From NCBI GenBank assembly GCA_947462765.1, contig CANHQK010000007.1, positions 1,438 through 65,437 on the forward strand: 64,000 nucleotides of DNA. Reading direction: 5' to 3'. Below are positions 8,113 to 44,050 of the stretch, in pieces; within the stretch, counting starts at the first letter, position 1, and every line of letters starts with the position of its first letter. The notes beneath the pieces were generated by a model that made no database searches, was not told the DNA's origin, and saw nothing but the letters and a program-made list of their open reading frames with translations. Made by a program: the position numbers and the translations under genes. The stretch is from Bdellovibrionales bacterium (GTDB lineage Bacteria > Bdellovibrionota > UBA1018 > CAIMNF01).

Positions 8113-8224
8113 CTGGGGCCGGAACGGGAGTGACGACCCATTAATCCTTGAAAATCTACCGGGGTCATTGAGTTGATAATATTTATTGATTTTTTATGTA
8201 ATTAATCGTAATGTCCGCACCACT

Positions 8225-8617: not shown

Positions 8618-8624
8618 TTCTGAT

Positions 8625-9560: not shown

Positions 9561-9716
9561 GGAACACTCCTCTCCGGGCTCCAAACCCGGTGGTTGGTTT
9601 CAAGCCCTGCAATATGCCGGAGTTTTCTAGGTGGATCCAGGGTTTTTGCGAAATGCCGACCAAAACAGTCTGTCTTAAAGGTCTTCAGTCCTGCCTGAAT
9701 GCCTCCGACACGACAA

Positions 9717-21305: not shown

Positions 21306-22235
21306 ATGCACATGAATGCGTTGATCGAGTACCGCACATTGGTTCTGTATGCCGGCTACGCCTTGATCGGTTTAGCGACCTTCATCCTCGGGAACATGTT
21401 GCTTTCCGAGCAGGAGAACATGAATGCGAGCGAGAATCTCCGTCAACTCGACGGTAAGAAAACCTCGAACGACTTCGTACGGCTCACTCGCCCGTTTTTC
21501 TCGCAATACATCGTCCCGGCGATCCGGAGCAAATCTAGATTCGACGAAGCGAGGCTGAAATACAGGCGTAAAATCATTAGTGGCGGGCTGAAGGATGAAC
21601 TCACTGCCGACGAATTCATCGCGTTCAAGATCATGCTCGTGGTGGTATTTCCCATCGTGGGAGGGTTTGTTCGTGCGCTCGACCTCGCTGACATTCCGAA
21701 CTATGTGATGATCTTCCTCCCCGTCATCGGTTACTTCTATCCTGACTTCTGGGTGAACGGCCGGATCAAGGTCCGTCATGCCCAAGTGATCAAGTCCATG
21801 CCCTTCGTCGTGGATCTGCTCGCCTTGTCTACCGAAGCGGGCCTGGACTTCATCGGAGCGATCCAGAAAGTGGTCGAAAAAGCCGCACCCGGTCCATTCA
21901 TCGATGAGATGGAACAGGTTCTGAAGGAGATCAAGGTCGGGTCATCCCGCTCGGAGGCTCTTCGGGAGATGGCCTTCCGGATCAATCTCCAGGAGGTCAA
22001 TTCTTTTGTCGCGGTCCTCTGTTCGGCCGATCAAATGGGGGCATCGATCGGCAAAGTTCTTCGCCAGCAGTCGGATCAGATCCGGACCCTTCGTTTCGTG
22101 CGAGCCGAGAAGGCGGGTGCGCTTGCCACACAAAAACTGATGTTTCCGACCTTTGCACTGATTCTACCTGCGATTCTCATCATGATGCTGATGCCGTTCG
22201 GACTGCAGGCCTACATGAACGGGGGAGGCGGCTGA
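21306..22235 (+). CDS. Tad/Flp pilus assembly inner-membrane platform protein (TadB/TadC-like, T2SS-F domain)
   Basis: GspF-like domain (FVVDLLALSTEAGLDFIGAIQKV...SRSEALREMA) with TM segments at both ends. Confidence 0.75.
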   Translation: MHMNALIEYRTLVLYAGYALIGLATFILGNMLLSEQENMNASENLRQLDGKKTSNDFVRLTRPFFSQYIVPAIRSKSRFDEARLKYRRKIISGGLKDELTADEFIAFKIMLVVVFPIVGGFVRALDLADIPNYVMIFLPVIGYFYPDFWVNGRIKVRHAQVIKSMPFVVDLLALSTEAGLDFIGAIQKVVEKAAPGPFIDEMEQVLKEIKVGSSRSEALREMAFRINLQEVNSFVAVLCSADQMGASIGKVLRQQSDQIRTLRFVRAEKAGALATQKLMFPTFALILPAILIMMLMPFGLQAYMNGGGG

Positions 22236-22600
22236 TGCGCGTACTCCGGATCGTCCGCCAGCAAGATGGAGCGGTGGTGGCCCACCGGGCCCGCATCGCG
22301 GACGGTTTCTTGAGTCGTTTGAGAGGTCTGATCGGAACCACGAGGTTTACCGAGGGGGAAGGTTTGCTCTTTCCCCGGTGTAACAGCATTCATATGTGGA
22401 TGATGAGCATCCCGATCGATGCTGTTTTTCTGGGTAAGTGTGAGGCGGGTTGGAGAGTGCTCAGTACTCATCCGAGTCTGAAGCCCTGGAAGATCCTTCC
22501 AGTGGGTAATGGTAAAGCGGAGGATGTTCTCGAACTTCCTGTCGGGACCGTCGAGCGCCTCAAGATCCGTCACGGGGAGGTGTTATGCATCGTCTCGTGA
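22235..22600 (+). CDS. DUF192 (COG1430) family protein
   Basis: CNSIHMWMMSIPIDAVFL...VLELPVGT matches the DUF192 core (SIHTFGM.F.IDv.FLd). Overlaps the upstream stop. Confidence 0.55.
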   Translation: MRVLRIVRQQDGAVVAHRARIADGFLSRLRGLIGTTRFTEGEGLLFPRCNSIHMWMMSIPIDAVFLGKCEAGWRVLSTHPSLKPWKILPVGNGKAEDVLELPVGTVERLKIRHGEVLCIVS

Positions 22601-24252
22601 TTGTTGCAGGTCCGAACCGCGGGAGTGCATTCTCTCTGATCGAGGGAGAGAACACGATCGGCCGCCAGATGGATAACCATATCGTGCTCACCTCTTCGAA
22701 AGTATCCAAGCGGCACTGCGCGCTACTGGTTACCACGCAAGAGGTCATTTTGAGAGATGAGGGAAGCACCAACGGGACTTTTGTCAATGGTGCACTCTCC
22801 CGACGGCACACCATGAAACCCGGTGACAAGCTCGGTGTCGGAGAGTTTGTTCTGGAACTCGTACGTTCCGGGGTGCCCGCCCAGGTCTCGACGGGGCAGA
22901 CCGGATCGTTTTCCAATCCGCTCGACAGCGGGATGCTCCCTTCGAATCCGTTTGATCTCTCCGGTGGAGCCGGAGCCCTGGCTCTGCCGGGAGCCGCAAC
23001 CGCTCCGCTGAGATCCGGACCGGCTAACCTTCAGGAAGCCACTTTCGATGATCTCGCTCCGAAACAGGAGCTGCCCGAGGACCTTCCTGGCAAGCTCAAA
23101 TTCCTGTTCGAGGGCAAGATCATGCCCACATTCTATGGCATGCTGATGAAGAGTGAGCTCGGCAATATCCTCGCCGGCTTGCTCGGTATTGCCCTTTTGA
23201 TCTCTGTGTTCGCGTCGGTGATGCCCATGGAGAACATGGCCGAGCAGGGGATCCAGCGGGAAGCCAAAATACGCGGAACCGTCCTGGCTCGCGAGGTAGC
23301 GGATCGTTACGCTCCCCATTTCGTCAACCATACCGAATCACAAATCGATTTTTCGCTCCTCACGCAAGAGGAGAGCATCAAGATCGTCGCGCTCCTCAAC
23401 ATGGACCTCAACATCGTGGCTCCCCAGGCCCGTCTGGGGCAGTTGTTTTCAGTCGGTGGGGAGGCTGCCTTCGCCCGGAAAATGGTCAAGGAATACCGCG
23501 AGGGCCGTGAAAAAGGCGGCGGTATGTTTCTCGATGCCCACACCTATGTGCACATCGAGCCCATCAAGGCAGCGGATCCCCGGACCTACGCCAATGAGGT
23601 GGTCGCCCTTGCGCTCGTATCCATCGATTTTTCGCGCAATATGGTCACCGCTGGAGGCCTCGAAATCGCCTATGGCTCGGCCATCATTTATACGGCCATC
23701 ATCGGCCTGATTTTTTACTTCATCCTGTTGCGTCTGATCCAGAAGCCCTACGAGGTCATGAACGATGACCTCGACCAGGTGTTGAGGGGAGAGATTCCGA
23801 GGGTCACCAAGGAGTTCAAGCTGGGTCATCTCGAGAAGCTCTGGGACAACGTCAATGCCGCTGTTCAGAGGATGGGAAAGGGAGACTCCTCTGTAGAGGA
23901 GGGGACCGTGCTTTGGGATCAGGAATTCGCACCCTGGTTGGCGGTCGCGGAAGCCGGTCAAATGGGACTGATCGGCTTTGACGCCAATCTGATCATGGTG
24001 ACCGTGAACCCGTTTTTTTCGGATTTAAGTGGCATCCGAGGTGATTCGGTGGGGCAGACCCTGTCCCAAGTCGGTGATCAAGCCATGATTTCACTGGTGA
24101 CCGAGATGAAAAGCGGTGCGGAGCGCTCCGGTAGCCGGACCACTTCCGATAAGTTCGAGTTTCAGGGGATCGACTATTCGGTCGTCGCCACCCTGGTCGG
24201 TCCGAAAGACCAGGCCGGGATCGCCCTCCTGTTCAGAAAGAAGGAGTCCTGA
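22585..24252 (+). CDS. FHA-domain membrane protein (N-terminal FHA, Pro/Ala linker, TM helix, extracytoplasmic domain)
   Basis: FHA motif GRQMDNHIVL...SKRHCALL...LRDEGSTNGTFVNG. TM segment GLLGIALLISVFASV. Confidence 0.8.
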   Translation: MHRLVIVAGPNRGSAFSLIEGENTIGRQMDNHIVLTSSKVSKRHCALLVTTQEVILRDEGSTNGTFVNGALSRRHTMKPGDKLGVGEFVLELVRSGVPAQVSTGQTGSFSNPLDSGMLPSNPFDLSGGAGALALPGAATAPLRSGPANLQEATFDDLAPKQELPEDLPGKLKFLFEGKIMPTFYGMLMKSELGNILAGLLGIALLISVFASVMPMENMAEQGIQREAKIRGTVLAREVADRYAPHFVNHTESQIDFSLLTQEESIKIVALLNMDLNIVAPQARLGQLFSVGGEAAFARKMVKEYREGREKGGGMFLDAHTYVHIEPIKAADPRTYANEVVALALVSIDFSRNMVTAGGLEIAYGSAIIYTAIIGLIFYFILLRLIQKPYEVMNDDLDQVLRGEIPRVTKEFKLGHLEKLWDNVNAAVQRMGKGDSSVEEGTVLWDQEFAPWLAVAEAGQMGLIGFDANLIMVTVNPFFSDLSGIRGDSVGQTLSQVGDQAMISLVTEMKSGAERSGSRTTSDKFEFQGIDYSVVATLVGPKDQAGIALLFRKKES

Positions 24253-24255
24253 TCC

Positions 24256-25311
24256 ATGATCCGCGACAAGGTCTTCCGATTCAATAAAGCCGAGGTTCCC
24301 CGCCAAGCGGGCGAATTCGCGCGCTTGCGAGTCGTCAAGGGCCCGGATCTCGGAGCGACCTTCGTGGTGAAGGAGTCCTCGTTCACGGTAGGGCGCGGCG
24401 AGACGGTCGACATCATCCTGGCCGACCCGAAAGCCTCGCGGAGTCATGCTCGGATTGAGTTCACCCACGAGGGGTGGTTGGTGAGCGACCTGGGTTCGGC
24501 AAACGGCGTCTTTTTCTCGGGAGAGTTCGTCCGGAAGTTCAAATTGAAGAGCGGGGACCACTTCACCATAGGTGACAGCGTCCTCGAGTTCCTGATGAGT
24601 CGCGAGTCGGATCGCGCTCTCATGGCCCCTGTCAAAGAGAATCAAGATATCGAGCGTCTTGATGTGGCCCTCGCGCAACAGAAGGTCAGGGTCAAGAACA
24701 TTTCGAAGCCGGTTGCCGGGGTTCAGAAAAAAAAGCAGGAAAAGCGTAGTCCGTTGCTTCTCGTGGTGATCGGTCTCGGTGTCGCGGGCTACCTTTATCC
24801 TGATGAGGCGAGGCCACTCCTTGAGGATTTCGGTCTCGGCATGGTGGCGGATTTTCTTCCGGAAACTCCCAAGTCGAAATCCGGTAAGGCGAAAAAAGCA
24901 GGCAAGGATGGCGAGAAAAAAGATGCCGAGGTCCGCGAGGTCGCCTCATTGGCCCCTTCTGAAGTGTCCCGTGAGGTCGAAAAAACCGCCGACCAACACT
25001 TCGCGCTCGGCTTCAGGGAGTATACGGCTGGAAACTACGTCCGCGCCAAAGAAGCCTTCGAACTCGCCCTTCAGGTCAACCCTCACCATGGCCGCGCAAG
25101 GTATTACCTGATGCATTCCGAGCACGAGAACCGCGAGGAGATTCGGAAGATCATCGAGTCGGCGCGAATCGCCCGGGAATTCGGCAGGACCAGAAAGGCC
25201 ATCGGTCTTTATGAAACAGCCATCCGGCATCTTTATTTCGACAGGGAAAACCCGTTGTATATCGAATGTGAGGCAGCCTTGAAAGAGCTGAAGAAGGTGG
25301 AGTCTCAATGA
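24256..25311 (+). CDS. FHA-domain membrane protein with C-terminal TPR-like region
   Basis: FHA motif GRGETVDIIL...SRSHARIEF...VSDLGSANGVFFSG. TM segment LLLVVIGLGVAGYLY. Lys-rich segment and a helical TPR-like tail. Confidence 0.8.
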   Translation: MIRDKVFRFNKAEVPRQAGEFARLRVVKGPDLGATFVVKESSFTVGRGETVDIILADPKASRSHARIEFTHEGWLVSDLGSANGVFFSGEFVRKFKLKSGDHFTIGDSVLEFLMSRESDRALMAPVKENQDIERLDVALAQQKVRVKNISKPVAGVQKKKQEKRSPLLLVVIGLGVAGYLYPDEARPLLEDFGLGMVADFLPETPKSKSGKAKKAGKDGEKKDAEVREVASLAPSEVSREVEKTADQHFALGFREYTAGNYVRAKEAFELALQVNPHHGRARYYLMHSEHENREEIRKIIESARIAREFGRTRKAIGLYETAIRHLYFDRENPLYIECEAALKELKKVESQ

Positions 25312-27563
25312 GCGGGTCTTTACGTTTGGAAGTATTTCAAAATGGCGAGCTCCTCCGGACCATCCCTTTCGACGGACAGGAGCTCTGGTTCGGGCGTGAC
25401 GAGGATTGCTCAGTCCGGCTGGATGATCGAGCGATTTCGCGTAAGCACGCGCTGATCCGTTCCACATCGAACGGGATTGAATTCGAGAAGAAATCGAAAT
25501 TCGGCATGGTCCGACTGAACGGCAAGGAGACCGATCATGCCCTGATCCAGGGGGGCGAACGTCTGGAGCTCGGCTCCTTTGAGATCCGTTTTGTCAAAGA
25601 GGGTGCCGTTCTTACGAAGCAAGTCCAGGAGGTTCAGACAACAGCTGCGGTGGCGATGACTGAGCCTGCTCTCACCGAGCCGGTGATCACCGAACCGGAA
25701 GCCGAAGAAGCTTCCGCTCCCGCCGAAAACGATCCTTTCGCAACCCCTGCCTCACAAGAGGATGGATTTCAAGCCGAGACGGCGGATCCGTTCCAGACGC
25801 CTGAGAGTGAGCCAGTCTCCTCGGGCGCCACCCGTAGTTTTGATTTCGCCGAAGTCGATCAGGATGGCGCCACCCGCGTCTTTAAGAGTCCCTCGAGGAC
25901 CATGAAGCCGATCCTCGAGTTCGGCGATGGAACGGCCAGTATGGGCTTTTACGAGATCGCCGATCCCGAGATCGCGATTGGTCGATCCCAAAAGTGCCAT
26001 GTGGTGCTCGAAGACAAGCGCTCTTCCCGCAAGCATGCGTTGATCATTGAGCGAGGGAAAAAGTATTTCCTGAAGGACCTCGGCTCGGCCAACGGTACCC
26101 TGCTCAATGGAGAGCGGGTGGATGAGCAGGAGCTACACAGTGGAGATGTCATCCGGATCGGTGACACCCAGTTCACCTTCAAGATGGTCCAAAGCGACTA
26201 TGAGCAGAAAAAAGCGGAGTTTTTCCAGGTTCCTCAAGAGCCCGAGCCCCCCGTGATGGCGGATGGATTTCCAGCTGCAGTTTCGCAGGCGCCTGTAGCT
26301 ACCATGTCTTCTCCGGCCATGGGAGGGATGTTCCCGGCATATTCCCAGGAAGTGTCGCATTCCGGGCCTGAAATTGCCGAGCCCATCGCAACCCCGGACT
26401 TCACCGTTCCCGAGGAGGAGACCCAAAGCATTCTCGGGAAACTCATCCAGCGGTACCGGATGCTCAATACCAAGCAGCAGGTGATCTACGGCCTGGTGGT
26501 TTTGGCGGGGATTTATTTTATTTTTGACGAGCCTCCCCCTGCGGTCAAAGCGGTAGACCCGGTGGCGGAGCAAAAAAAGGCTCAGAAGAAAGCCGAGAAA
26601 AAGCCAGGGGGTGGAGTCACCTACGAGATGTTGACCAAGGACCAGAAGGACTATGTCGATGCCCAGTATGATCTCGCCTTCGAACATTACAAGAATCGGG
26701 ATTATGATAAATCCCTTTTCGAGCTCGACAAGATTTTCAAGATCGTTCAGGAGCACAAGCGGGCGCGTGAAATTGAAACCTATGCCCGGGAGGCCAAGAG
26801 GAGGCTGGAAGCGCAGGAAGAGGACCGGAAGCGGAAGGAGCAGGAGCGCCAGGCCCGCCTCAAACTCGAAGAGCTACTGAGCCGTTCTGGAAGTCTGATG
26901 GACGAGGGTCGATACAAAGAGGCGGAGGAATTGTTCCCAGAAATTGAGATTCTCGAGCCCGAGAACGCGGCGGTATCGGCATGGAGGAAAAAGATCCTCG
27001 AAGAATCGGAGAAAAAGAAAGCCGAAGAGGAGATCCGGCAACGGCTCGGGGCCATCCTTGCCAAAGCCAAGGTAGACGCGGAAACCGCCGAGGGTCTTTT
27101 CAAGGAAAAGCGCTATGTGGATGCACTCGAAATCCTGGATGAGGTGGTCGAGCGTCAGGATCTGGACCCGAAATTCGTCAAGTCGATTGAGGGCAGGATC
27201 AAGGATATCGAGAAAGTCATGGCATCCGAACGCGATCCCCATATCGAAAACGGCAAGCGTCTTGAGGCAGATGGAAAGCTGGGAGAGGCGCATCGTGAAT
27301 ATAAAATGGCGATTTCCATCGATCCATCCGACAGCGAAGGTCCTGCCGGAATCAAGAGGATCCAAGGACAATTGAATTCGATGGCCAAGGCGATCTATTC
27401 TGACGGAGTGATCGCCGAGGGTTTCGGGGATTACGACGTCGCCGAAAAGAAGTACAGAGAGGTCATCGAAACGGTGCCCAGTGATAACTCTTATCACGTC
27501 AAAGCCAAGGCGAGGCTGAAGGTGTTCTCAACCCTGCGCAAGGTGCAGGAGGGCGGACGATGA
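25308..27563 (+). CDS. Tandem-FHA membrane protein with coiled-coil/TPR C-terminus
   Basis: Two FHA domains (GRDEDCSVRL..SRKHALI and GRSQKCHVVL..SRKHALI..DLGSANGTLLNG). TM segment VIYGLVVLAGIYFIF. Long Glu/Lys coiled coil. Start overlaps the previous stop. Confidence 0.8.
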   Translation: MSGSLRLEVFQNGELLRTIPFDGQELWFGRDEDCSVRLDDRAISRKHALIRSTSNGIEFEKKSKFGMVRLNGKETDHALIQGGERLELGSFEIRFVKEGAVLTKQVQEVQTTAAVAMTEPALTEPVITEPEAEEASAPAENDPFATPASQEDGFQAETADPFQTPESEPVSSGATRSFDFAEVDQDGATRVFKSPSRTMKPILEFGDGTASMGFYEIADPEIAIGRSQKCHVVLEDKRSSRKHALIIERGKKYFLKDLGSANGTLLNGERVDEQELHSGDVIRIGDTQFTFKMVQSDYEQKKAEFFQVPQEPEPPVMADGFPAAVSQAPVATMSSPAMGGMFPAYSQEVSHSGPEIAEPIATPDFTVPEEETQSILGKLIQRYRMLNTKQQVIYGLVVLAGIYFIFDEPPPAVKAVDPVAEQKKAQKKAEKKPGGGVTYEMLTKDQKDYVDAQYDLAFEHYKNRDYDKSLFELDKIFKIVQEHKRAREIETYAREAKRRLEAQEEDRKRKEQERQARLKLEELLSRSGSLMDEGRYKEAEELFPEIEILEPENAAVSAWRKKILEESEKKKAEEEIRQRLGAILAKAKVDAETAEGLFKEKRYVDALEILDEVVERQDLDPKFVKSIEGRIKDIEKVMASERDPHIENGKRLEADGKLGEAHREYKMAISIDPSDSEGPAGIKRIQGQLNSMAKAIYSDGVIAEGFGDYDVAEKKYREVIETVPSDNSYHVKAKARLKVFSTLRKVQEGGR

Positions 27564-28288
27564 CAGCTGGAAGCCGTTCGCGGATTCCGCTCAGCTTTGC
27601 CGAGGGGTTTCAGACTCAGGGGGATACGCCTGTACAAGAGGACTACTTCGAGTTGAATCCTGAGAGAGGAATTTACATCTTGGCTGACGGGTTCGGCGGA
27701 TCCCTCGGTGCACGAGCGGCTGAAACCGTGGTGAAATCCGTTCGTCAGTACCTCGAGCATGAAGCAGGGGACCTCGATGCAACCATGCCTTTTGAGCTTC
27801 GTCCCTATTATTCCCTGGCCGGCAACGTGCTGTTCAATGCGGTCGCATTTGCAAACCAGAAAATCATGGAGATGAATCGGGGTCGGAACTGGCAGGACTC
27901 GGGGGGTGCTAGTTTGGTGGCAGGCTACCTCGAAGGCCGACTGCTGTCGGTGGCTCGCGTGGGCGCTTGTCGCTTGAGGCTCAAGCGGGGCGGCCAGGTG
28001 AAAGAGCTGATTCCCGCGAGGAGTCTTCTCAGGCAAACCGATCCGATGAGTGAGGAAGGTCCGGGCGATTCCGTGCCACTGATGAGTTTCGGCACATCCC
28101 GGTCGCTCGAGCCCGAGATGACAGAACTCGAGCTCAGGTCCGGAGATCAAGTGTTCTTTGAGACCGGTGGTGTACGTCAAGCCTGGCGTCAAAAGATCCA
28201 CGCCCTCAATGATCCTCATGGACTCAAAGGGCTTCTGGATTCCCTTGAATCCCCGGGGAATGCGTCGATGATTTGGCTCGGCTTTTAA
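27560..28288 (+). CDS. PP2C-family (PPM) Ser/Thr protein phosphatase
   Basis: Metal-binding motif GIYILADGFGGSLGARAAE. Overlaps the previous stop (ATGA). Confidence 0.8.
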   Translation: MTAGSRSRIPLSFAEGFQTQGDTPVQEDYFELNPERGIYILADGFGGSLGARAAETVVKSVRQYLEHEAGDLDATMPFELRPYYSLAGNVLFNAVAFANQKIMEMNRGRNWQDSGGASLVAGYLEGRLLSVARVGACRLRLKRGGQVKELIPARSLLRQTDPMSEEGPGDSVPLMSFGTSRSLEPEMTELELRSGDQVFFETGGVRQAWRQKIHALNDPHGLKGLLDSLESPGNASMIWLGF

Positions 28289-28309
28289 TTATACGAACCC
28301 TGTGTAACA

Positions 28310-28519
28310 ATGTACACAGGGGGTCTCTTGAGCCAGAAAAGGAAGTCCGGACAAGCAGTCGTCGAATACATCGTGCTCCTGACCATGGTTGTCGGGATCA
28401 TGGTCGCTTTTTTGCGGGCAGTGAACGGTTCTTTCAATAAAGCGGTGCCGAGGATGGGGGGAGCCATCGAGCGGCAATTGCGTACCGGGGCCGCTTCTGC
28501 AGGAGTGTGGAGAAAGTGA
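28310..28519 (+). CDS. Flp-family type IVb prepilin
   Basis: Short leader, then G|QAVVEYIVLLTMVVGIMVA (Glu+5/Tyr+6 after the predicted cleavage). 69 aa. Confidence 0.6.
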   Translation: MYTGGLLSQKRKSGQAVVEYIVLLTMVVGIMVAFLRAVNGSFNKAVPRMGGAIERQLRTGAASAGVWRK

Positions 28520-28794
28520 AGAGGAGCGACCTGGGGCAGGCCGTGGTCGAGTACATCATCCTGCTAGCAATCCTGGTCGGGCTTTACGGAGCGATGATTC
28601 GTCAGCTGGGTGAACGGGAAGTGTTCAAAAAGATGCAAAAGCCCCTGACGAAGGACTTTGCTGCGACTTACCGTTACGGACATCCGAAGGCGAAAGGAAT
28701 GGACGACGGGGGACCTGTCAACATTCCGACGGTTCAGAGCAAAGGCTACGATGACCAGAACTTCAGGATTTTTTACAATCCGACGATAGAGTGA
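28507..28794 (+). CDS. Flp-like prepilin, second copy
   Basis: G|QAVVEYIILLAILVGLYGAM leader/hydrophobic segment. 95 aa. Confidence 0.6.
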   Translation: MEKVKRSDLGQAVVEYIILLAILVGLYGAMIRQLGEREVFKKMQKPLTKDFAATYRYGHPKAKGMDDGGPVNIPTVQSKGYDDQNFRIFYNPTIE

Positions 28795-29850: not shown

Positions 29851-30710
29851 TGAATAGCAGGGCGATGACATTATCGTTGGTGATGGCCGGGATTGCGGTA
29901 TTCTTCGTGATGAGTTCCGTGTCGAGCATCGAGCAGAATGCCACCATGAAGTATGGCGACGAAGTGACCGTGCTCGTGGCAAAGCAAGATATCAGGGAAA
30001 TGGGAACGATTCTCGACTCCATGGTCGAGGCGAAATCCGTGCCGAGAAACTTCGTTGAGCCGACCGCGGTCAAGTTCGACGGAAAACTCGATGTCGAGTC
30101 GCCCGAGGGTGCTAGTGCCTATTCGGTTCAGTCCAAGCGGATTGTTGGAAACGTGGCGATTGTCGCAATCAAGAAGGGCGAGCAACTGACCCTGAATAAA
30201 ATCACCGAGCCGAGCATGAGGACCGGGTTGGCGCCCCAGGTGACACCCGGGAAGCGCGCTATTGCTGTTCCGATCGATGAGTCCACCAGTGTGGCCAAGC
30301 TGGTCAAGCCAGGTGACCGTGTAGATGTGATCGCCGTGGTCCAGTCGCCGGGCGTCGGTGGTAGGGAAGTGAAAACTGCCAAGACTGTTTTCCAGGATGT
30401 CGTGATTCTTGCAGTAGGTCGGTCGATTGCGAACAATGTCGCTCGCCGCGTTGATGTCGACATGTCCGGAACCGCCAGGGTCCGCTCCCTCACCGAATAC
30501 GACGGTTATAGTTCCATCACACTAGAGCTCGACCCTGCCCAGGCCCAGTTGGTGGCAGCCATCTATACTGACAATTCCAACCGTCTTATCCTGTCGCTCC
30601 GGAATAATGACGACGCGGACCGGGTGGCCATCAGCGCTCCTTCCAGGGCAACCGATGTGTTGACGGACAGCCAGCGTTTGCCGGCAAGCAACAGTGGAGG
30701 GCTGAAGTAA
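29847..30710 (+). CDS. cpaB: Flp pilus assembly protein CpaB/RcpC (SAF domain)
   Basis: N-terminal TM segment, then SAF-like VTVLVAKQDI...GNVAIVAIKKGEQLT. Confidence 0.75.
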   Translation: MMNSRAMTLSLVMAGIAVFFVMSSVSSIEQNATMKYGDEVTVLVAKQDIREMGTILDSMVEAKSVPRNFVEPTAVKFDGKLDVESPEGASAYSVQSKRIVGNVAIVAIKKGEQLTLNKITEPSMRTGLAPQVTPGKRAIAVPIDESTSVAKLVKPGDRVDVIAVVQSPGVGGREVKTAKTVFQDVVILAVGRSIANNVARRVDVDMSGTARVRSLTEYDGYSSITLELDPAQAQLVAAIYTDNSNRLILSLRNNDDADRVAISAPSRATDVLTDSQRLPASNSGGLK

Positions 30711-30711
30711 C

Positions 30712-32406
30712 ATGCTGAATGCTTCCGTTTGTCTTCTCCTCAGTTTGCTTTCATTCCCGGTCGATGCAATCGCCCAGCAGGAAGCGGTGTCCCCCACACC
30801 GGCTGAGGGCGAAGGTGAGGAAAAAAAAGAACGGAAGCGTCGGCGGGCGCCTGAAGAAAGGGCTGCATATACGCGCTCGAGGTATTCCGCCGACAGGAGT
30901 GAGGCCGAGGCCGACCGACGAGCCTTGCTGCTGACTGCAGGGGTCGACAAAACAGTCGATCTGGAGGCCTCACTGAAGATCACCGGAGACACGAGCCAAA
31001 AAGTCCTGATCGGGAATGTCTCGGTGGTGAAAGTCCTTCCTGTGATTATCGGAGATCGGAAGCAATTGATTTTCAAACCGGAAGGGGTCGGAGAGACCAA
31101 CGTCACGATCCGGGATGATTCCGGCAATGTCAGACTCATCTTCGAGGTGATCGTCGCACAGGCCAACCAGATCCGGAACCTCGAGCGGCTACGAGAGAAT
31201 CTGAAGGAAGTCGAAGGAATCACGATCAATATCGAGGAAAAGAACATCGTGCTCCGCGGGGAGGTGCTCACCACGTCTGATTTTAGCATGGTGAACAATG
31301 AGTTGTCGGGTGATCTCTACGGAAAAGAGGTCATCAACAAGGTGAGAATGTCACCGGTTACACTCAACTTTCTTGCCAAGAGGATTGAGCAGGACATCCA
31401 GGTTTTCGCTCCCACAGTGAGGGCCTCGGTCATCAACGGTAAAATCATTCTCGAAGGCACGGTCGATAGCGAAGGCATCAAACAGCGCGCTTACAACCGA
31501 GCCTACTATTATCTGCCCATGGTCCGATTCAAAGAAAACGTCGGGTCCGATCAGAACGTGATTGAAATGGAGCAGGATAAGAAAACCTTCATTCTCCAGT
31601 CTGATATCACTGTTCAGACCCCCCCTCCAAAAAGAGAGAGCAAGCTCGTCAGGATGACCGTGTATTTCGTCGAGTTGGGCAAGGACTTTTTGAAAGCTTT
31701 CGGTTTCAAGTGGCAGCCCGGTTTCGCATCGGACCCCAGTATCAGCGTCGGGCAGACTGCGACGGGTGGAGTGGGGACCAGCGGAGGAGGGTTCACATTC
31801 AGTGGTACGCTGACGTCACTGTTTCCGACCATCAGCGCCCCGCCCTCTAATGCGTCCTATGGAAGGATCATGAAGTCTGCGACCGTCATTGTGAAGAACC
31901 GTGAGGAGGGAGAAGTCCGTGACCAGGTCCAGGTGCCTACTCAGGCCTTGGGGCAGGGTGGGACTCAGGGTAACGGACCAGCAGTTCAGGTCGGCTTCCA
32001 CATCAAGATGACGCCTTCCATTCTTGAGGGGCAGGATGTCGACGTGAACGTGGATATCGAGCAGAGCAATCAGGTGGGAAAGGGTGTGAACGGCACCCCG
32101 ATCGTGGCCACTCACAAGGTAAAGACCCGGCTCTATCTCAAGTCCGGCGAGACGGCCGCATTGACCGCTGTGAACAAACAGGACGTCGCCACTTCCTTCA
32201 ATCGGGATGACGCCGCTCCCGGAGCATTCCAGCAATCACAAGGGGGGGCCCAGACCAAGCCCCTGTTCAGTTTTCAACGGTCTAAGAACATGTCGAAGTC
32301 GAGGGGACAGTTTGTGATCTTCGTGAACCCGCAAGTGATCGACAACGCCTCAGAGGGCACAGAGGATTTGAAGAAGAATTTCCGTATGACATCGAGCACT
32401 CGCTGA
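30712..32406 (+). CDS. cpaC: Tad secretin CpaC/RcpA
   Basis: Signal peptide, BON-like N-terminal repeats, C-terminal secretin domain ending GQFVIFVNPQVID. Confidence 0.85.
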   Translation: MLNASVCLLLSLLSFPVDAIAQQEAVSPTPAEGEGEEKKERKRRRAPEERAAYTRSRYSADRSEAEADRRALLLTAGVDKTVDLEASLKITGDTSQKVLIGNVSVVKVLPVIIGDRKQLIFKPEGVGETNVTIRDDSGNVRLIFEVIVAQANQIRNLERLRENLKEVEGITINIEEKNIVLRGEVLTTSDFSMVNNELSGDLYGKEVINKVRMSPVTLNFLAKRIEQDIQVFAPTVRASVINGKIILEGTVDSEGIKQRAYNRAYYYLPMVRFKENVGSDQNVIEMEQDKKTFILQSDITVQTPPPKRESKLVRMTVYFVELGKDFLKAFGFKWQPGFASDPSISVGQTATGGVGTSGGGFTFSGTLTSLFPTISAPPSNASYGRIMKSATVIVKNREEGEVRDQVQVPTQALGQGGTQGNGPAVQVGFHIKMTPSILEGQDVDVNVDIEQSNQVGKGVNGTPIVATHKVKTRLYLKSGETAALTAVNKQDVATSFNRDDAAPGAFQQSQGGAQTKPLFSFQRSKNMSKSRGQFVIFVNPQVIDNASEGTEDLKKNFRMTSSTR

Positions 32407-32424
32407 AGAAGGGACGGACGGAGC

Positions 32425-34578
32425 ATGGGACACATCATCGCAGTGGTGGGAGGAAAAGGAGGGGTCGGGAAAAGTGTTTTCGCCGCGAACCTCGCGATCG
32501 CCTATCAGATGAACTTCAAGCAGCGTTCCTTGATTCTCGATCTCGACTTCCAGAGTCTCGGTGATCAGAACATCATTCTCGGATTGAATCCCCCGAAGAC
32601 AATCGTGGATGTCAGCAAGGCCCAGGTCGGCACCTGGGATCCGAAGGCCATGACTCCTTTCCTTGCCAATTCACCGCAGGGCTTCAGCTTCATCGGTGCG
32701 CCCCGGGAAGCTGCGCTTGCCAAGGACATCGATCTGGATGGACTCGGAAAGTTTCTCAAAGCCGCAGTGGGTGTTTTTCCGTGGGTGGTGATTGATTGCG
32801 GCAACGGAACAGAACCCCATGCCCTGAAGGCCATGGAGCAGGCGAGTCTGATTTTCGTCGTGACCACTCCGGACGTGATCGTTCTCAACCAGACGCGAAG
32901 GATTCTCGGCAAGGTCCAGGAGCTTCTTTTTCCACAAGAAATGGTACAGGTGGTGGTGAACCGCTATTCACCTAACAATGTGATCAATCCCCAGATGATC
33001 CAGAAGAGCATCAATAAGGCACCCTATTTTGCCATTCCCGAGGATGCAGCCACCTGTGAAGCATCGCTGACCAAGAGTCAGCCTTTCACCATGGTCAATC
33101 CGGGGGCGGCTATTTCGAGAGCTTTCTCGGATTTGGTTCGTCGGATGGATCAGAGCAAAATGCTTGATCAGCTGGCTAAACTGAACAAGCCCACCGGGGT
33201 GGCGCAGAAGGTCGGTGCGGCAGCGGTGGCGCCGACCGATGGAGGCGGAGAAAGCGGAGGCGGTTTGCTGGCCCGCTCAAAGTCGGCTCCCACGGATCCC
33301 TGGACCAACATGAAGCTCAGGATTCACAAGGCACTCATCGATGTCGTGGACATGAAGAAGATGAATGCGGATGTTGCGGATGCCAAGCAACGCGAGGTAT
33401 TGCGCGAAAAAACTCAAAAAGCGATTCTCGATGTACTGGCAAAAGAGGATGTGTCGACCCTTTGTCCGACACGTGAACTCAGAGCCCAGCTTGTAAAGGA
33501 AGTTCTCGACGAAGCCTTGGGGCTCGGACCGCTCGAGGATCTTCTCGCGGATGAAACGGTGACTGAGATCATGGTCAATGCTCGGGACCAGATCTACGTG
33601 GAACAAGGCGGAAAGCCTGGCTTATCCAAAACAACTTTTTCGAGTGAGCAGCAGATGATGAATGTGATCGAGCGGATCGTCACGCCGCTCGGCAGACGGG
33701 TCGATGAAAAGACACCGTATGTGGATGCCCGACTTGCGGATGGCTCGCGGGTTCACGTGATCATCCCTCCGCTAGCGCTCAGGGGCCCCACCATCACAAT
33801 CCGAAAATTTCCCAAGAAAAGAATCGTGTCTGCGGACTTGGTGAAGTTCGGTTCGATGACACAGGAGATCGCGGATTTTCTGCGGGCTTGCGTCGAAGCC
33901 AAACTGAATATCGTGGTTTCGGGCGGAACGGGATCCGGTAAAACCACTTTGCTCAATGTTTTATCCAACTTCATTCCAGCGACCGAGCGGATCATCACCG
34001 TCGAGGATGCAGCCGAACTCCAGCTCGGGCAGGAGCACGTGGTCCGGCTCGAGACCCGTCCCAAAAACATCGAGGGCGAGGGTGAGGTATCCATCAGGGA
34101 TCTGATCAAGTGTTGTCTCCGGATGCGGCCTGACCGGATTGTGGTCGGGGAGTGTCGGGGTGGCGAAGCCCTCGACATGTTGCAGGCTATGAACACGGGT
34201 CACTCCGGCTCGTTGACCACGGTGCACGCCAACAATCCCAGGGAGTGTATCGGACGTCTTGAAACGCTGGTGATGATGGCCGGGATGGGACTTCCCCTCA
34301 AGGCCATCCGGGAAACCGTGGCCAGTGCGGTCAATCTGATCATTCAGCAGTCGCGTCTGACGGATGGTTCGCGGAAGGTGACCTATGTATCGGAGGTGCT
34401 CGGGATGCAGGGCGAAACCGTTACCATCCAGGACATCTTCATCTACAAGCAGGAAGGCTTGGACAAGAACCGTAAGATTATTGGCAGGTTCGTGCCGACT
34501 GGTTTCATTCCTAAATTCGTCGAAGAAATGGAAGCAAAAGGCATGAAAATCTCACGGGGACTTTTCGCGGTCAAATAA
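32425..34578 (+). CDS. Fused CpaE/TadZ-like MinD-type ATPase domain plus CpaF/TadA secretion ATPase
   Basis: N-terminal deviant Walker A AVVGGKGGVGKS (ParA/MinD/CpaE type). C-terminal TadA ATPase (VSGGTGSGKTTLLNVL, Asp/His boxes). 717 aa. Confidence 0.85.
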   Translation: MGHIIAVVGGKGGVGKSVFAANLAIAYQMNFKQRSLILDLDFQSLGDQNIILGLNPPKTIVDVSKAQVGTWDPKAMTPFLANSPQGFSFIGAPREAALAKDIDLDGLGKFLKAAVGVFPWVVIDCGNGTEPHALKAMEQASLIFVVTTPDVIVLNQTRRILGKVQELLFPQEMVQVVVNRYSPNNVINPQMIQKSINKAPYFAIPEDAATCEASLTKSQPFTMVNPGAAISRAFSDLVRRMDQSKMLDQLAKLNKPTGVAQKVGAAAVAPTDGGGESGGGLLARSKSAPTDPWTNMKLRIHKALIDVVDMKKMNADVADAKQREVLREKTQKAILDVLAKEDVSTLCPTRELRAQLVKEVLDEALGLGPLEDLLADETVTEIMVNARDQIYVEQGGKPGLSKTTFSSEQQMMNVIERIVTPLGRRVDEKTPYVDARLADGSRVHVIIPPLALRGPTITIRKFPKKRIVSADLVKFGSMTQEIADFLRACVEAKLNIVVSGGTGSGKTTLLNVLSNFIPATERIITVEDAAELQLGQEHVVRLETRPKNIEGEGEVSIRDLIKCCLRMRPDRIVVGECRGGEALDMLQAMNTGHSGSLTTVHANNPRECIGRLETLVMMAGMGLPLKAIRETVASAVNLIIQQSRLTDGSRKVTYVSEVLGMQGETVTIQDIFIYKQEGLDKNRKIIGRFVPTGFIPKFVEEMEAKGMKISRGLFAVK

Positions 34579-34596
34579 CCCCAGTATCATGGAGGA

Positions 34597-35472
34597 ATGA
34601 GTTTCGCGATTCCTCACTGGCTGCTCGGCCTCGTCGTGTTTGTCTCGGCGTTGCTGGTTGCTTATCAGTTTTCAGGACGGATTCTCGACTGGGTGAGATT
34701 CCACTCGATCGGAACGCGGGACTACATCGCCGACAAGCTCAAGCTGATGATGATCGATCTTCCACTCGAGAAGATCCTCATGTACCAGGTCGGGTTTTCA
34801 TTCGGTCTTGCCGGGCTCGTGTTTCTGGCTTGTTTACCGAATTTAAAGGCTGGCGGGGCATTGGGCGCGGTTGTCGCTGTTGCTGCTTGGTTTCTCCCCA
34901 AGCCGATCGTGAATGTCCTGTATCAGAAGCGCGTGGACCGTTTTGTCGAACAAATGGTGGATGGACTCGGTCTCATGTCGAACGGGATGCGATCGGGTCT
35001 CTCGGTCTCCCAAGCGATGGGTCTGGTGGCCCAGGAAATGCCCGATCCCATCAAATCCGAGTTCGAGTTGGTGCTCAATCAGAACAAGCTCGGTTCCTCT
35101 CTTGAATCGGCCTTCATCGATCTTTCGAAACGCGTGGTGGCGGACGAGGTCGAGATGTTCGTGACTTCCGTGGTCATTCTCAAGGAGACCGGGGGAAATT
35201 TGGCGGAAACCTTCGACACCATCACCACCTTGATCCGTGAAAGGATCAAAGTCGAGAACAAGATCAAGGCCATGACGGCATCCGCCTTTTGGCAAGGGAT
35301 GATCCTACTCGGAGTACCGCCATTCATGGGATTGACGCTTTCCCAGTCCGATCCCGAACTCATGAGGCCGATGTTCGAGACCTGGCTTGGCTGGGTCGGC
35401 CTCTCTACCGTGGCAATTTTGATGTTGGTAGCTTATTTTGTAATCAAGAAGGTGACAAAAATCGATGTCTGA
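34597..35472 (+). CDS. Tad/Flp pilus assembly platform protein (TadB/TadC-like)
   Basis: T2SS-F domain with 3-4 TM helices. Confidence 0.75.
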   Translation: MSFAIPHWLLGLVVFVSALLVAYQFSGRILDWVRFHSIGTRDYIADKLKLMMIDLPLEKILMYQVGFSFGLAGLVFLACLPNLKAGGALGAVVAVAAWFLPKPIVNVLYQKRVDRFVEQMVDGLGLMSNGMRSGLSVSQAMGLVAQEMPDPIKSEFELVLNQNKLGSSLESAFIDLSKRVVADEVEMFVTSVVILKETGGNLAETFDTITTLIRERIKVENKIKAMTASAFWQGMILLGVPPFMGLTLSQSDPELMRPMFETWLGWVGLSTVAILMLVAYFVIKKVTKIDV

Positions 35473-37174
35473 GGTGAGAAGAATGACCAGAGTCTTGATC
35501 TTGTTGGGCGCATTGTTGTCGGTATCCAGTGCTTTTGCACGGGCTGATGTGAGTCTTCGGAACGGTAATTTTTTTGTTTCTTTGAGAGACATTTCTTTTC
35601 CGGGAGGGATCGAGCCCAAGATTGAACGGGTCTACAATTCAAAGTCCGACTTCCACGGGATGTTCGGTTACAGCTGGGGAACTGAGTACGAAACGCGCCT
35701 TGGCTTCGATCCTGACGGCAGTCTGTTATTGACCGAGTACGGAGGGGGCGCGAATATCCGTTTCGTTCCAAAGACCTTCACGGCCAAAGATGTTGAGGAT
35801 GGGATCAAGAGTGTGGTCGAGTCCGCACAGAAGGCGGGGATGGTCACCAGTGCGAAGGGCCTGGAAGACTATCGTAAACGTCTGAGAGAGAGTTCTGAAT
35901 TCCGAGCCAAGCAATACGCGATTTTTGTCAATAAGGGGAGTCTCCAGAGAAAAGTGATCGCGGAGAATACCCAGTTCATTTCCACTGACTATCAGTATCA
36001 GTATCTGACCCGCGTGAAGGGCGGATATACCCGGGTGATGGAAGCGGGCATGATTCAGAAATTCAACGAAGCCGGACGCTTGGTGCAGATCATGGATCGG
36101 AACCGGAACTTCGTCAATTTCTCATACGATTCGAATGGGAAGATCGCCCAGATGATCGACAACCAGAATCGCAAGATGGTTTTCTCCTACAATCAGTTCG
36201 GCCTGGTCGAGCGGATCGTGGGTGAGAGCGGAAAGAAAGCCGAATTCAAGTATTCAAAAGAGGGATTTCTGGTCTACAGCAAAGATGATGCAGGCGTGGA
36301 GAATACGTTTAAGTACACCGCCGACCAGTACCGCAATCTTTCCGAGATCGGTTATCCCAATGATCGGAATGCCAAGGGCGAACCCAAGCGGATGGTGGTC
36401 GGTTATTATGGTCCGGAGAAGAACTCCAGCGTGAAGTCGGTGGTGAATCTGGATGGTACAGTGAACGAATATGAGTACGAACTCGCGGGGAAGACCCCGG
36501 GTTATTATTCGGTCCGTGTGGTGTTGAAAGACGCCTCCGGAGCGAAACTCAATGATTCGAAGTACGAGTATTTTTACAAAACGAAGCCCAGTGGCGAGGA
36601 GTTCACTTCCCGGATGGTGACCACCGTGGACGGCGAGAAAACCGAGACCGTCTACGACGAGAAGCTCGGCTATCCCTTGAAGATCACAGCCAACGGAAAA
36701 ACCACGACCATGGAATATGACTTGAAGGGCCGGATGACCCGTAAGGTCACCCCTCTTCACACCACCACGCTCACTTATGATCCGGTGGTGGGAAAGGTGT
36801 CCAAGGTTGTCAAAAAAGTGGCGAGCGGAACCGTGATCTGGAGCGAATTTGAATACGATAAAACCACGGGGAACCTCTTGGTGGCCCGGAATAGCGATAA
36901 AAAACTGGTGAAGCTGATCTATGATTCACAGGGGCGGATCAGCGCTCTCGTGGACCAGGCGGGCCGACAGCTCACCTTCAAGTACAACGAGCTCTCCAAG
37001 CCGGTCGAAATCCGGGATGCCAAGCTCGGAACGGTGCGATTCACCTATAAAAACAGTGGCGAAGTCGACAAGGTGGACAGCAACGGGGGTGCGGGGGTGT
37101 CGGTGGAGGTGATGCGCGCATTGCAAAGCCTGATCGATATCACCGCTCCAGCTGGTGTCACCATGTCGATTTGA
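35465..37174 (+). CDS. Secreted YD-repeat (RHS-repeat) protein
   Basis: Signal peptide MTRVLILLGALLSVSSAFA. Many YD-type repeats (e.g. GRLVQIMDRNRNFVNFSYDSNGKIAQMID, KMVFSYNQFGLVERIVGESGKK, TTTMEYDLKGRMTRKV). Start overlaps the upstream platform gene. Confidence 0.7.
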   Translation: MSEVRRMTRVLILLGALLSVSSAFARADVSLRNGNFFVSLRDISFPGGIEPKIERVYNSKSDFHGMFGYSWGTEYETRLGFDPDGSLLLTEYGGGANIRFVPKTFTAKDVEDGIKSVVESAQKAGMVTSAKGLEDYRKRLRESSEFRAKQYAIFVNKGSLQRKVIAENTQFISTDYQYQYLTRVKGGYTRVMEAGMIQKFNEAGRLVQIMDRNRNFVNFSYDSNGKIAQMIDNQNRKMVFSYNQFGLVERIVGESGKKAEFKYSKEGFLVYSKDDAGVENTFKYTADQYRNLSEIGYPNDRNAKGEPKRMVVGYYGPEKNSSVKSVVNLDGTVNEYEYELAGKTPGYYSVRVVLKDASGAKLNDSKYEYFYKTKPSGEEFTSRMVTTVDGEKTETVYDEKLGYPLKITANGKTTTMEYDLKGRMTRKVTPLHTTTLTYDPVVGKVSKVVKKVASGTVIWSEFEYDKTTGNLLVARNSDKKLVKLIYDSQGRISALVDQAGRQLTFKYNELSKPVEIRDAKLGTVRFTYKNSGEVDKVDSNGGAGVSVEVMRALQSLIDITAPAGVTMSI

Positions 37175-37194
37175 TCAACCGATTTTGTTTAATA

Positions 37195-37223
37195 TTGACC
37201 TCCGTTCTTGCGGCTGGTTAAAC
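37195..37223 (+). promoter_or_regulatory. Candidate sigma-70-type promoter (TTGACC-17 bp-TTAAAC)
   Basis: Hexamers with 17-bp spacing, about 20 nt upstream of the small peptide gene's RBS and ATG. Confidence 0.3.
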
Positions 37224-37245
37224 TGTGTGGAGAGGTAAGGTTTTC

Positions 37246-37458
37246 ATGAAACTGATTCTGGCTTTGAGCTTCCTTCTGGTCGGTACTCATTCGGCATTGG
37301 CTGCAGCAAACGCTGAGAACAAGTCGAGTACTTGTTGCAAGACCTGTGCGGTGGATCAGGGTGGCTGCTCACCGGATGCCGGCAATACGCCTGATCAGGC
37401 CGTGGTTCAGGCGGCTGACAAGGTTCAGATGCCAGGCGATTCCAGCGAGGGTAAGTGA
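37246..37458 (+). CDS. Small secreted Cys-containing peptide (70 aa)
   Basis: Signal peptide MKLILALSFLLVGTHSALA. Mature region has the CCKTC..C motif. Confidence 0.4.
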   Translation: MKLILALSFLLVGTHSALAAANAENKSSTCCKTCAVDQGGCSPDAGNTPDQAVVQAADKVQMPGDSSEGK

Positions 37459-44022: not shown

Positions 44023-44050
44023 TCGGCACCCCTCATTTATCATTGTAGGC

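Follow-up and report, generated by a model that had tools for sequence, protein, structure and literature searches.

Gene content and organization of the locus

We analyzed a 64-kb stretch of DNA (contig CANHQK010000007.1, hereafter the window) from a freshwater Bdellovibrionota metagenome-assembled genome (MAG). A 16-kb cluster at positions 21306–37458 of the window encodes a Tad pilus machine together with three FHA-domain proteins, a PP2C-fold protein, a secreted RHS/YD protein and a small secreted cysteine-containing peptide. Based on gene order and domain architecture, this cluster very likely represents the predatory Tad (type IVc) system of the Bdellovibrionota, in which the tadC operon, the TAD operon and the hit gene are joined.

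Inspection of the open reading frames (ORFs) identified 16 co-directional genes in the cluster, all on the + strand and most of them overlapping. Adjacent ORFs overlap by 4–32 nt or are separated by at most 21 nt, except that the last small ORF follows after a gap of 50–71 nt. A spacer of 21 nt separates the PP2C-fold gene from flp1. The locus had been pointed out in an earlier model-generated note made from the sequence and its ORFs (the original prediction). The ORFs lie exactly at the coordinates given there, but their number is 16 and not 17. Most of the Tad and accessory labels of that prediction were supported by searches against Pfam and NCBIfam, namely T2SSF in two proteins, DUF192, FHA in three proteins, RcpC, Secretin, T2SSE, and RHS/YD. 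The PP2C, Flp, and TadE labels fall below the thresholds of the hidden Markov models (HMMs) and were judged by a family profile and a structural model (PP2C) or by motif (pilins).

Tad core

Two GspF-like platform proteins are encoded in the cluster. The TadC-type inner-membrane platform protein (21306–22235; 309 aa) opens it at the position of Bd0470 in Bdellovibrio bacteriovorus HD100, contains a T2SSF domain (E 1.1e-15), and has three transmembrane (TM) segments predicted by a TM scan. The TadB-type platform protein (34597–35472; 291 aa; T2SSF, E 8.5e-18) occupies the Bd0110 position near the end of the cluster. The RcpC/CpaB protein (29847–30710; 287 aa) carries an N-terminal TM anchor and matches RcpC (E 1.3e-20) and SAF (E 4e-4). 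The RcpA/CpaC-type secretin (30712–32406; 564 aa) has a signal peptide and the domain set pil_N, BON, and Secretin (T2SS-T3SS_pil_N, E 1.1e-4; BON, E 1.1e-6; Secretin, E 1.9e-11).

The ATPase gene (32425–34578; 717 aa) encodes a TadZ-TadA (CpaE-CpaF) fusion with T2SSE (E 2.8e-63) and CbiA (E 5.9e-15) matches. The protein consists of a ParA/MinD-like domain with the deviant Walker A motif GGKGGVGKS, a linker, and a CpaF-type hexameric ATPase. Residues 1–241 match MinD (E 6e-15), and residues 256–704 match structures of Caulobacter CpaF (E 3e-125). The TadA family model TIGR03819 is matched with E 1.9e-97 and 326.5 bits, which does not reach its cutoff of 373 bits.

Four consecutive small ORFs (28310–29850) encode the putative pilins. 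A six-frame translation of the window contains exactly four matches to the class III motif GQ[AS][IVL][IVL]E[YFV], all of them at the N-termini of these ORFs and each with a hydrophobic stretch behind it. Flp-type pilin 1 (28310–28519; 69 aa; G/QAVVEY), at the flp1/bd0119 position, was recognized by its motif and hydrophobic helix with no HMM match. Flp-type pilin 2 (28507–28794; 95 aa; G/QAVVEY) matches Flp1_like at E 0.31 only. TadE/F-like minor pilin 1 (28791–29336; 181 aa; G/QAVIEF) shows a sub-threshold match to Pfam TadE (E 0.042) that spans all 43 profile positions. TadE/F-like minor pilin 2 (29305–29850; 181 aa; G/QSILEV) has the motif and a TM segment, with no HMM match. The Pfam pilin models are thus weak on these ORFs (TadE, E 0.04; Flp1_like, E 0.3). 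The labels of two Flp and two TadE-like proteins rest on the motif, present in all four ORFs, and do not reach the HMM thresholds.

Judged from sequence, the cluster encodes a complete Tad core, comprising two platform proteins, the TadZ-TadA ATPase, RcpC, the secretin, two predicted Flp pilins, and two predicted TadE/F-like minor pilins. No prepilin peptidase (peptidase A24, TadV/CpaA) was detected by Pfam in the scanned ORFs of the window, and neither TadD nor TadG was found among these ORFs.

FHA proteins and DUF192 protein

Between the tadC gene and the pilin genes lies a set of accessory genes. The first encodes a DUF192 protein (22235–22600; 121 aa; E 9.9e-15) without a signal peptide at the Bd0471 position. 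In the Protein Data Bank (PDB), this protein finds weak matches to 3m7a and 3pjy, and a search of the literature for DUF192 in pilus systems returned nothing useful.

The next three genes encode FHA proteins, as had been predicted from the sequence. Pfam found an FHA domain in all three and two of them in FHA3, giving four FHA domains in total after the tadC gene. All three are predicted membrane proteins. In the FHA family alignments, the phosphothreonine-binding residues (GR, SxxH, and NG) are at least 90% conserved. FHA2 (24256–25311; 351 aa; isoelectric point (pI) 9.2; FHA, E 7.7e-16; TPR_2, E 1.9e-6), at the Bd0473 position, is bitopic, with a cytoplasmic FHA domain, one hydrophobic TM segment (~166–182), and a periplasmic TPR region. 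FHA3 (25308–27563; 751 aa; pI 5.1), at the Bd0474 position, is also bitopic and contains two cytoplasmic FHA domains (E 1.1e-30 in two stretches), one TM segment (~392–407), and a periplasmic coiled-coil/TPR region with matches to several TPR families.

FHA1 (22585–24252; 555 aa; FHA, E 1.9e-15; Yop-YscD_cpl, E 1.6e-16) is a sensor-like membrane protein. According to the TM scan, a cytoplasmic FHA domain (residues 1–95) and a linker are followed by a first TM segment (195–213), a periplasmic inter-TM domain of ~145 aa, and a second TM segment (360–385). The second TM segment is followed by a HAMP-like stretch (HAMP_2, E 0.04) and then by ~125 aa that make up the C-terminal domain. The sole PDB profile matches of the C-terminal domain are PAS domains, all of them weak (E 0.035–1). 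This architecture is kept in 10 homologues, down to 24% identity, and no kinase or other enzymatic output domain was found in FHA1. FHA1 looks like a transmembrane sensor, and it is the likeliest sensor of the locus because of its periplasmic domain and its HAMP/PAS-like parts.

PP2C-fold protein

The gene at 27560–28288 encodes a cytoplasmic PP2C-fold protein (242 aa; pI 5.4) at the Bd0475 position. It has no Pfam match, and its match to NCBIfam Stp1 (E 1.3e-10) scores under the cutoff. A profile built from 24 homologues aligns over the full length with the phosphatase tPphA in the PDB (E 5.7e-24) and also matches the phosphatase PppA of the type VI secretion system (T6SS; E 1.3e-11). The AlphaFold2 model (pLDDT 91) shows Foldseek TM-scores of 0.80 to tPphA and 0.74 to PppA. 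The PP2C label of the original prediction is therefore backed, as a fold, by both the family profile and the model.

PPM structures show D193 and D231 as ligands of metal M1 and R13 as the phosphate-binding residue. The family consensus, aligned with tPphA, keeps D18 (vqeD) and D34-G35 (adGfGG), with D193 (tdg) and D231 (dN) more weakly retained. The third-metal Asp (D119) is missing family-wide. The protein of the window keeps D28, D43, and G44, and has T23, G203, and G233 at the positions of tPphA R13, D193, and D231, respectively. The equivalents of D193 and D231 are lost in all 36 sampled relatives with at least 49% identity, and that of R13 in 35 of the 36. Among six more distant database homologues, four keep both Asp residues, and three of these four keep the Arg too. 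Most of the distant loci (e.g., L017, L021, L024, L028, L030, and L045) keep the motif-8 Asp, several of them also the Arg and the DN motif. Since the equivalents of R13, D193, and D231 are lost, the PP2C-fold protein is probably a pseudophosphatase in the clade of the window. The 32 invariant columns in alignment A3 of the PP2C-fold proteins suggest that the protein of this clade is still under strong purifying selection. Loci L008, L011, and L012, with a degenerate protein, and L017, L021, L024, L030, and others form a natural degenerate/active PP2C pair at an equal locus position.

No Hanks-type Ser/Thr kinase was found, as Pfam detected no Pkinase domain in the window, and a regular-expression search for the catalytic-loop motif HRDxKxxN...DFG gave no match in the window or in 84 related loci. 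A kinase would have to be encoded elsewhere.

RHS/YD protein and small Cys peptide

The gene directly after tadB encodes a Bd0109-like secreted protein with DUF6531 and RHS/YD repeats (35465–37174; 569 aa, or 563 aa from the ATG at 35483). The protein is Sec-exported, and its Pfam match to DUF6531 and RHS/YD repeats has E 9e-17. In its AlphaFold2 model (pLDDT 87), DUF6531 forms a beta domain at the N-terminus, the other parts being a segment of three helices, ~18 beta-hairpins, and a helix at the C-terminus. The best structural matches of the model are T6SS Rhs effectors. Only ~415 residues can be aligned to the ~1040-residue Rhs cores, so that the shell cannot close. The NCBIfam RHS_core match covers only profile positions 431–669 of 1261. 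Neither a PxxxxDPxGL aspartyl-protease core nor a C-terminal variable or toxin domain was found in the protein. Among the top 120 matches listed, the family is uniform in size (~560 aa) with no variable tips, and searches with the protein of the window and with that of locus L039 returned only MAG-derived proteins. By sequence and model, the YD protein is a partial, toxin-less RHS shell, as has been argued for Bd0109. The original prediction had regarded it as secreted cargo. This assignment was rejected in view of the partial shell, the missing protease core and toxin, and the missing variable C-terminus.

The last gene of the cluster (37246–37458) encodes a small secreted Cys peptide of 70 aa at the Bd0108 position. 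Translation likely starts at the ATG at 37246, which is preceded by the ribosome-binding site GGAGAGG (37229–37246). The peptide has a signal peptide (...ALA/AA) and an acidic, low-complexity mature part of ~50 aa with four Cys residues (CCKTC...GGC). Most of the 57 loci examined have a small ORF of ~60–105 aa after the YD gene, with a signal peptide, low complexity, and one or more Cys residues, and the peptide sequence is conserved among close relatives only. A sigma-70-like promoter match (TTGACC-18-TAAACT; 37195–37224, + strand) lies in the gap before the small ORF. Together with the strong GGAGAGG, this consensus match hints at a promoter of its own. Overall, sigma-70 matches are no more frequent than expected from shuffled sequence (9 observed vs 6.8 ± 3.1 expected).

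A radical-SAM-modified Cxxx-repeat peptide was also considered for the small ORF and rejected, as TIGR04117 was matched far under its cutoff (E 0.0017). The radical SAM gene downstream of the peptide gene (37537–38505) encodes a lipoyl synthase (LIAS_N and Radical_SAM) and belongs to a lipA-E2-E3-lipB block. Because this is an ordinary lipoyl synthase gene in a housekeeping block, its adjacency to the peptide gene seems coincidental.

Probable equivalence to the predatory Tad system of B. bacteriovorus HD100

In B. bacteriovorus HD100, the TAD operon bd0109–bd0119 contains flp1 (bd0119) and flp2 (bd0118), then minor pilins, CpaB (Bd0113), the secretin (Bd0112), the ATPase (Bd0111), TadB (Bd0110), and Bd0109 (PMC5430801, PMC8460266). 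In Bd0111, TadZ and TadA are fused, and the part made up of TadZ and the linker binds RomR, a polarity hub. HD100 depends on the machine to attach lastingly, to remodel its prey, and to invade it, and rcpA and tadZA are needed for predation. HD100 has no TadV, PilD processes Flp1, and TadC is encoded separately. The HD100 tad genes are adjacent to the hit locus, with FHA, TPR, and other regulatory genes close by (bioRxiv 10.64898/2026.07.08.737194). Bd0109, an RHS/YD protein exported by Sec, contains no toxin and binds Bd0108, and it was reported to be likely essential for viability in any growth mode. Bd0108 is a small secreted, intrinsically disordered CxxC protein whose mutation leads to host-independent growth (PMC3818213, PMC4267844). 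A second operon, Bd0470–0475, is headed by tadC (Bd0470). It encodes the FHA protein Bd0473 (386 aa; pI 9.3), Bd0474 with two cytoplasmic FHA domains and extracytoplasmic TPR (674 aa; pI 5.8), and the 228-aa "hypothetical" protein Bd0475 (pI 4.9), a predicted Bd0473 binder. Neither Bd0470 nor Bd0474 mutants can kill prey: the former do not attach to it, and the latter attach, yet do not round it (PMC6561027, PMC12034629). For HD100, modelling of the Bd0475–Bd0473 and Bd0109–Bd0108 pairs gave ipTM values of 0.60 and 0.79, respectively.

The locus of the window resembles three HD100 units, namely the two operons and the hit gene (Bd0108). The order flp1, flp2, minor pilins, cpaB, secretin, TadZ-TadA, tadB, RHS, and small Cys peptide is the same, as is the order tadC, two small or medium genes, FHA, 2xFHA-TM-TPR, and a protein of ~230 aa. 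The size and pI of FHA2, FHA3, and the PP2C-fold protein parallel those of Bd0473, Bd0474, and Bd0475. The two systems also share the TadZ-TadA fusion with a deviant Walker A motif and the lack of a prepilin peptidase gene in the locus, and in both an RHS/YD protein with a signal peptide and no toxin is encoded right after TadB. The small peptide sits at the position of Bd0108 and has a signal peptide, an acidic low-complexity mature part, and C-K-T-C. However, the two operons are ~350 gene numbers apart in HD100 and contiguous here, the contiguous arrangement being the common form (42 of 46 loci). The peptide of the window differs in its four Cys residues and has no detectable similarity beyond its own clade, and the PP2C-fold protein of the window is catalytically degenerate. 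None of the fetched loci contains a match to the published HD100 primers.

The original prediction had suggested that the locus could be a differently built device. The build as such is not new, because the TadZA fusion, the hit adjacency, the FHA operon, Bd0109, and Bd0108 have all been published for HD100. To a large extent, a like locus with known function is thus already described in the HD100 literature, and the locus of the window is in essence a known system and no new kind of system.

Conservation of the locus across the Bdellovibrionota

Freshwater metagenome contigs carry a protein identical to the ATPase of the window, and the most similar genomes, with 97% identity, are MAGs from ponds and lakes that bear the labels Bdellovibrio sp. 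ZAP7, Bdellovibrionales, or Oligoflexia. The TadZ-TadA fusion was retrieved from 80 species-level genomes with 58–97% identity, all but a few of which are labelled Bdellovibrionota. None of the 80 loci found in this genome scan is from B. bacteriovorus.

For the synteny comparison, all proteins of the window were searched with tblastn against the fetched loci (L001–L084), which include 10-kb flanks. The order FHA1-FHA2-FHA3-PP2C-Flp1-Flp2-TadE1-TadE2-RcpC-secretin-TadZA-TadB-YD is collinear in 41 of the 44 loci with at least nine markers, and the three exceptions are edge artefacts. The FHA/PP2C genes lie upstream of the pilus genes in 42 of the 46 loci with enough flank. TadB followed by YD is found downstream in all 56 loci (56/56), and TadC and DUF192 stand at the left edge wherever the 10-kb flank extends there. 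The gene order of the window therefore recurs among the tad loci of the Bdellovibrionota, as the synteny check proposed with the original prediction had asked.

The four loci that depart from the upstream arrangement are L039, L058, L076, and L082, the last of which has FHA genes but no PP2C match. Loci L039, L058, and L076 have no FHA/PP2C block upstream of flp1 and apparently show the HD100-like split form. In L039, the ORFs at upstream positions 1–5200 are mostly on the opposite strand, a split arrangement resembling that of HD100. A complete Bdellovibrionota-type tad/YD cluster also occurs in L043 (JAGTJX010000001.1) and L068 (JBBRLF010000160.1), from MAGs labelled Lysobacteraceae and candidate division WWE3, respectively. 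Both contigs are probably mis-binned or mislabelled.

Comparison with Kil, canonical Tad, and T6SS

The Kil system of Myxococcus xanthus (MXAN_3102–3108 and MXAN_4648–4661) is used in predation and, like the machine of the window, is Tad-derived. Seef et al. (2021) reported Bd0110–0113, Bd0115, Bd0117, Bd0119, and Bd0470 to be homologous to KilG, F, C, B, L/M, K, and H, and put the Bdellovibrio genes Bd0110–0119/Bd0470 in a Kil-like clade (PMC8460266). The kil clusters contain an excess of FHA proteins, including MXAN_3104, KilD (FHA and TPR), MXAN_4648 (FHA and TPR), and MXAN_4649 (FHA), and MXAN_4648 and MXAN_4649 directly precede KilH and KilG (PMC8460266). In both systems, FHA or FHA-TPR genes thus stand beside platform genes. 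A comparison of Pfam sets further shows that the pil_N, BON, and Secretin domains of the secretin equal the InterPro list for KilC, and TadD, RcpB, and TadG are absent from the clusters of both. On the other hand, the KilF ATPase bears an N-terminal FHA domain, whereas the ATPase of the window bears TadZ (ParA/MinD-like), with no FHA match in its 717 aa. Kil has its own prepilin peptidase, KilA, and is split into two clusters. The published Kil gene table contains no RHS protein, Bd0108-like peptide, DUF192 gene, or PP2C-fold gene, all of which are present in the window. The FHA-ATPase fusion, a hallmark of Kil, is missing from the window because the fusion partner is TadZ. The original prediction of a Tad machine that is related to Kil and has an embedded FHA/PP2C-fold module is supported, and the Kil-like clade and the FHA enrichment were published in 2021. 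The locus belongs to the Bdellovibrio-type branch and not to Kil proper, and it is evolutionarily close to Kil and would work like it.

Canonical Tad/Cpa systems (Aggregatibacter tad and Caulobacter cpa) share Flp, TadE/F, RcpC/CpaB, RcpA/CpaC, TadZ/CpaE, TadA/CpaF, TadB, and TadC with the window. In contrast to these systems, TadZ and TadA are fused in the window, and TadZ has no N-terminal receiver-like domain (it is ParA-like from residue 3). TadV/CpaA, TadD, and TadG are missing from the locus, and the FHA, PP2C-fold, DUF192, RHS, and small-peptide genes are added. The PpkA/PppA/Fha1 system in the T6SS of Pseudomonas aeruginosa likewise combines FHA and PP2C-fold proteins within the operon of an envelope-spanning machine, and the PP2C-fold model resembles PppA. 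The window differs from the T6SS in having no linked kinase, three membrane-anchored FHA proteins instead of one soluble protein, and a PP2C-fold protein that has lost catalytic residues in its clade. Compared with Rhs/YD polymorphic toxins and Tc BC cocoons, the YD protein of the window covers ~40% of a cocoon and lacks the protease core, an encapsulated toxin, and a variable C-terminus.

Genomic surroundings

The upstream flank of the locus is divergent and encodes a secreted protein of no known family, ABC permeases, and a GH3 hydrolase. The secreted protein (20510–21223, – strand; 237 aa), the immediate upstream neighbour of the locus, carries a signal peptide and matches no family. No tblastn relative of it was found in the fetched loci, whose flanks seldom extend that far. 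The downstream flank contains the housekeeping genes lipA, 2-oxoacid dehydrogenase E2 and E3, and lipB. Other genes for regulation or positioning, 6–18 kb downstream, encode a second ParA/MinD-like ATPase (50643–51698, – strand), a histidine kinase with a sigma-54 activator response regulator (52377–55500, + strand), and a stand-alone receiver protein (43612–44154, – strand). An unusual 660-aa protein (43–2025, + strand) has a phosphoribosyltransferase domain fused to an erythromycin-esterase-like domain. The GC content dips to 0.52 at 8001–10000, compared with ~0.57–0.59 in neighbouring 2-kb windows. An apparently solitary N6/N4 DNA methylase gene (11388–12323, – strand) lies beside a metallophosphoesterase gene, with no restriction partner among the neighbouring ORFs scanned. 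Scanning the window for tRNAs and Rfam families gave no match.

Proposed role of the locus

Work on HD100 and Myxococcus suggests that the machine would be positioned at the prey-invading pole by the TadZ part of its ATPase. The prepilins would be cut by a peptidase encoded elsewhere (PilD in HD100), Flp pili would be polymerised through the secretin, and the machine would mediate durable prey attachment and entry. We propose that the FHA-TM-TPR trio may form a trans-envelope scaffold or signalling layer, in which phosphothreonine-dependent FHA contacts would couple the periplasmic state (contact, pilus, or secretin status) to the platform and the ATPase. FHA1 is the candidate sensor. The PP2C-fold protein may partner FHA2. 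It could be an eraser in most lineages but would more likely bind without catalysis in the clade of the window, and an unlinked kinase is presumably encoded elsewhere. The RHS half-shell and the Cys peptide may modulate the state of the pilus in the periplasm, as proposed for Bd0109 and Bd0108, and would not be delivered cargo.

A more far-reaching interpretation is possible, although we consider it less likely than not. The block of TadC, DUF192, three FHA-TM proteins, and the PP2C-fold protein would be an integral and probably ancestral part of the predatory Tad system of the Bdellovibrionota and would serve as a trans-envelope contact sensor. FHA1 would sense the periplasm with its inter-TM domain and HAMP/PAS-like parts, the periplasmic TPR regions of FHA2 and FHA3 would bridge to the secretin side, and the PP2C-fold protein would be a binder of phosphothreonine sites (with a dead active site) or of FHA domains in this clade. 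Several points weigh against the equivalence to the HD100 system and the roles proposed above. The pseudophosphatase status is deduced from residue loss only, and no kinase is linked to the putative phospho-signalling. The HAMP and PAS matches of FHA1 are below significance, which makes these assignments tentative. As the small peptide has no detectable similarity beyond the close clade, its homology to Bd0108 is positional only. Gene order, domain architecture, length, and pI, as opposed to reciprocal best hits, are the basis of the equivalence. The source is the MAG of an uncultured organism, whose presumed predatory role is drawn from the HD100 and Myxococcus literature.

Among the other explanations, a T6SS-like threonine-phosphorylation switch that fires the machine on contact, with the PP2C-fold protein as an active eraser in the window too, would agree with the retained phosphothreonine-binding residues of the FHA domains and the closeness of the fold to T6SS PppA (TM-score 0.74), and such an analogy has already been proposed for Kil (PMC8460266). 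We consider it unlikely, given that Pfam finds no Hanks kinase in the window and the catalytic-loop motif occurs in 0 of 84 related loci. In addition, the protein of the window lacks the equivalents of R13, D193, and D231, both Asp residues are missing in 36/36 relatives with at least 49% identity, and D119 is missing family-wide. Still less probable is an ordinary adhesion or biofilm Flp pilus that has no role in predation, with the FHA genes as chance neighbours or general regulators. The core genes are indeed standard Tad components, but the FHA/PP2C genes overlap their neighbours and are collinear with the pilus genes across the predator phylum. Reports on the predatory system of Bdellovibrio include both the TadZA fusion and the YD gene, and the positions corresponding to Bd0470, Bd0474, rcpA, and tadZA are needed for predation in HD100.

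The least probable explanation, to which we give hardly any weight, is a contact-killing device in which the YD/RHS protein is a secreted cargo or toxin and the Cys peptide its partner or immunity factor. Repeats of the RHS/YD type are a typical feature of polymorphic toxins, T6SS Rhs effectors are the best structural matches, and a signal peptide followed by a small gene resembles a toxin-immunity pair. However, with ~415 of ~1040 core residues aligned, the shell cannot close. The PxxxxDPxGL core and a variable C-terminal domain are lacking, RHS_core is matched only at 431–669 of 1261, and the family keeps a uniform ~560 aa without variable tips. The small protein is secreted too, which does not resemble an immunity protein of the cytoplasm, and Bd0109 is likely essential in any growth mode and binds Bd0108 (PMC3818213, PMC4267844).

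Implications for the Bdellovibrionota

The Tad machine, whose accessory genes are Bd0471–0475, Bd0108, and Bd0109, is central to prey attachment and entry in Bdellovibrio. The window and ~80 related loci show that in most of the phylum the FHA block forms a single physical unit with the pilus/hit block, which argues for one functional machine. The information added here is modest, and the Kil-like relation of the Bdellovibrio homologues has already been published. What is new is the PP2C fold assignment for the protein at the Bd0475 position, with clade-specific catalytic decay, together with the findings that the two operons are contiguous across the phylum, that no kinase is linked, and that FHA1 is laid out like a sensor. 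Canonical and degenerate PP2C proteins in different clades provide a natural pair for biochemistry. If the proposed contact-sensor role of the FHA/PP2C block is true, the PP2C-fold protein would be a pseudophosphatase adaptor in a bacterial nanomachine that runs without a linked kinase.

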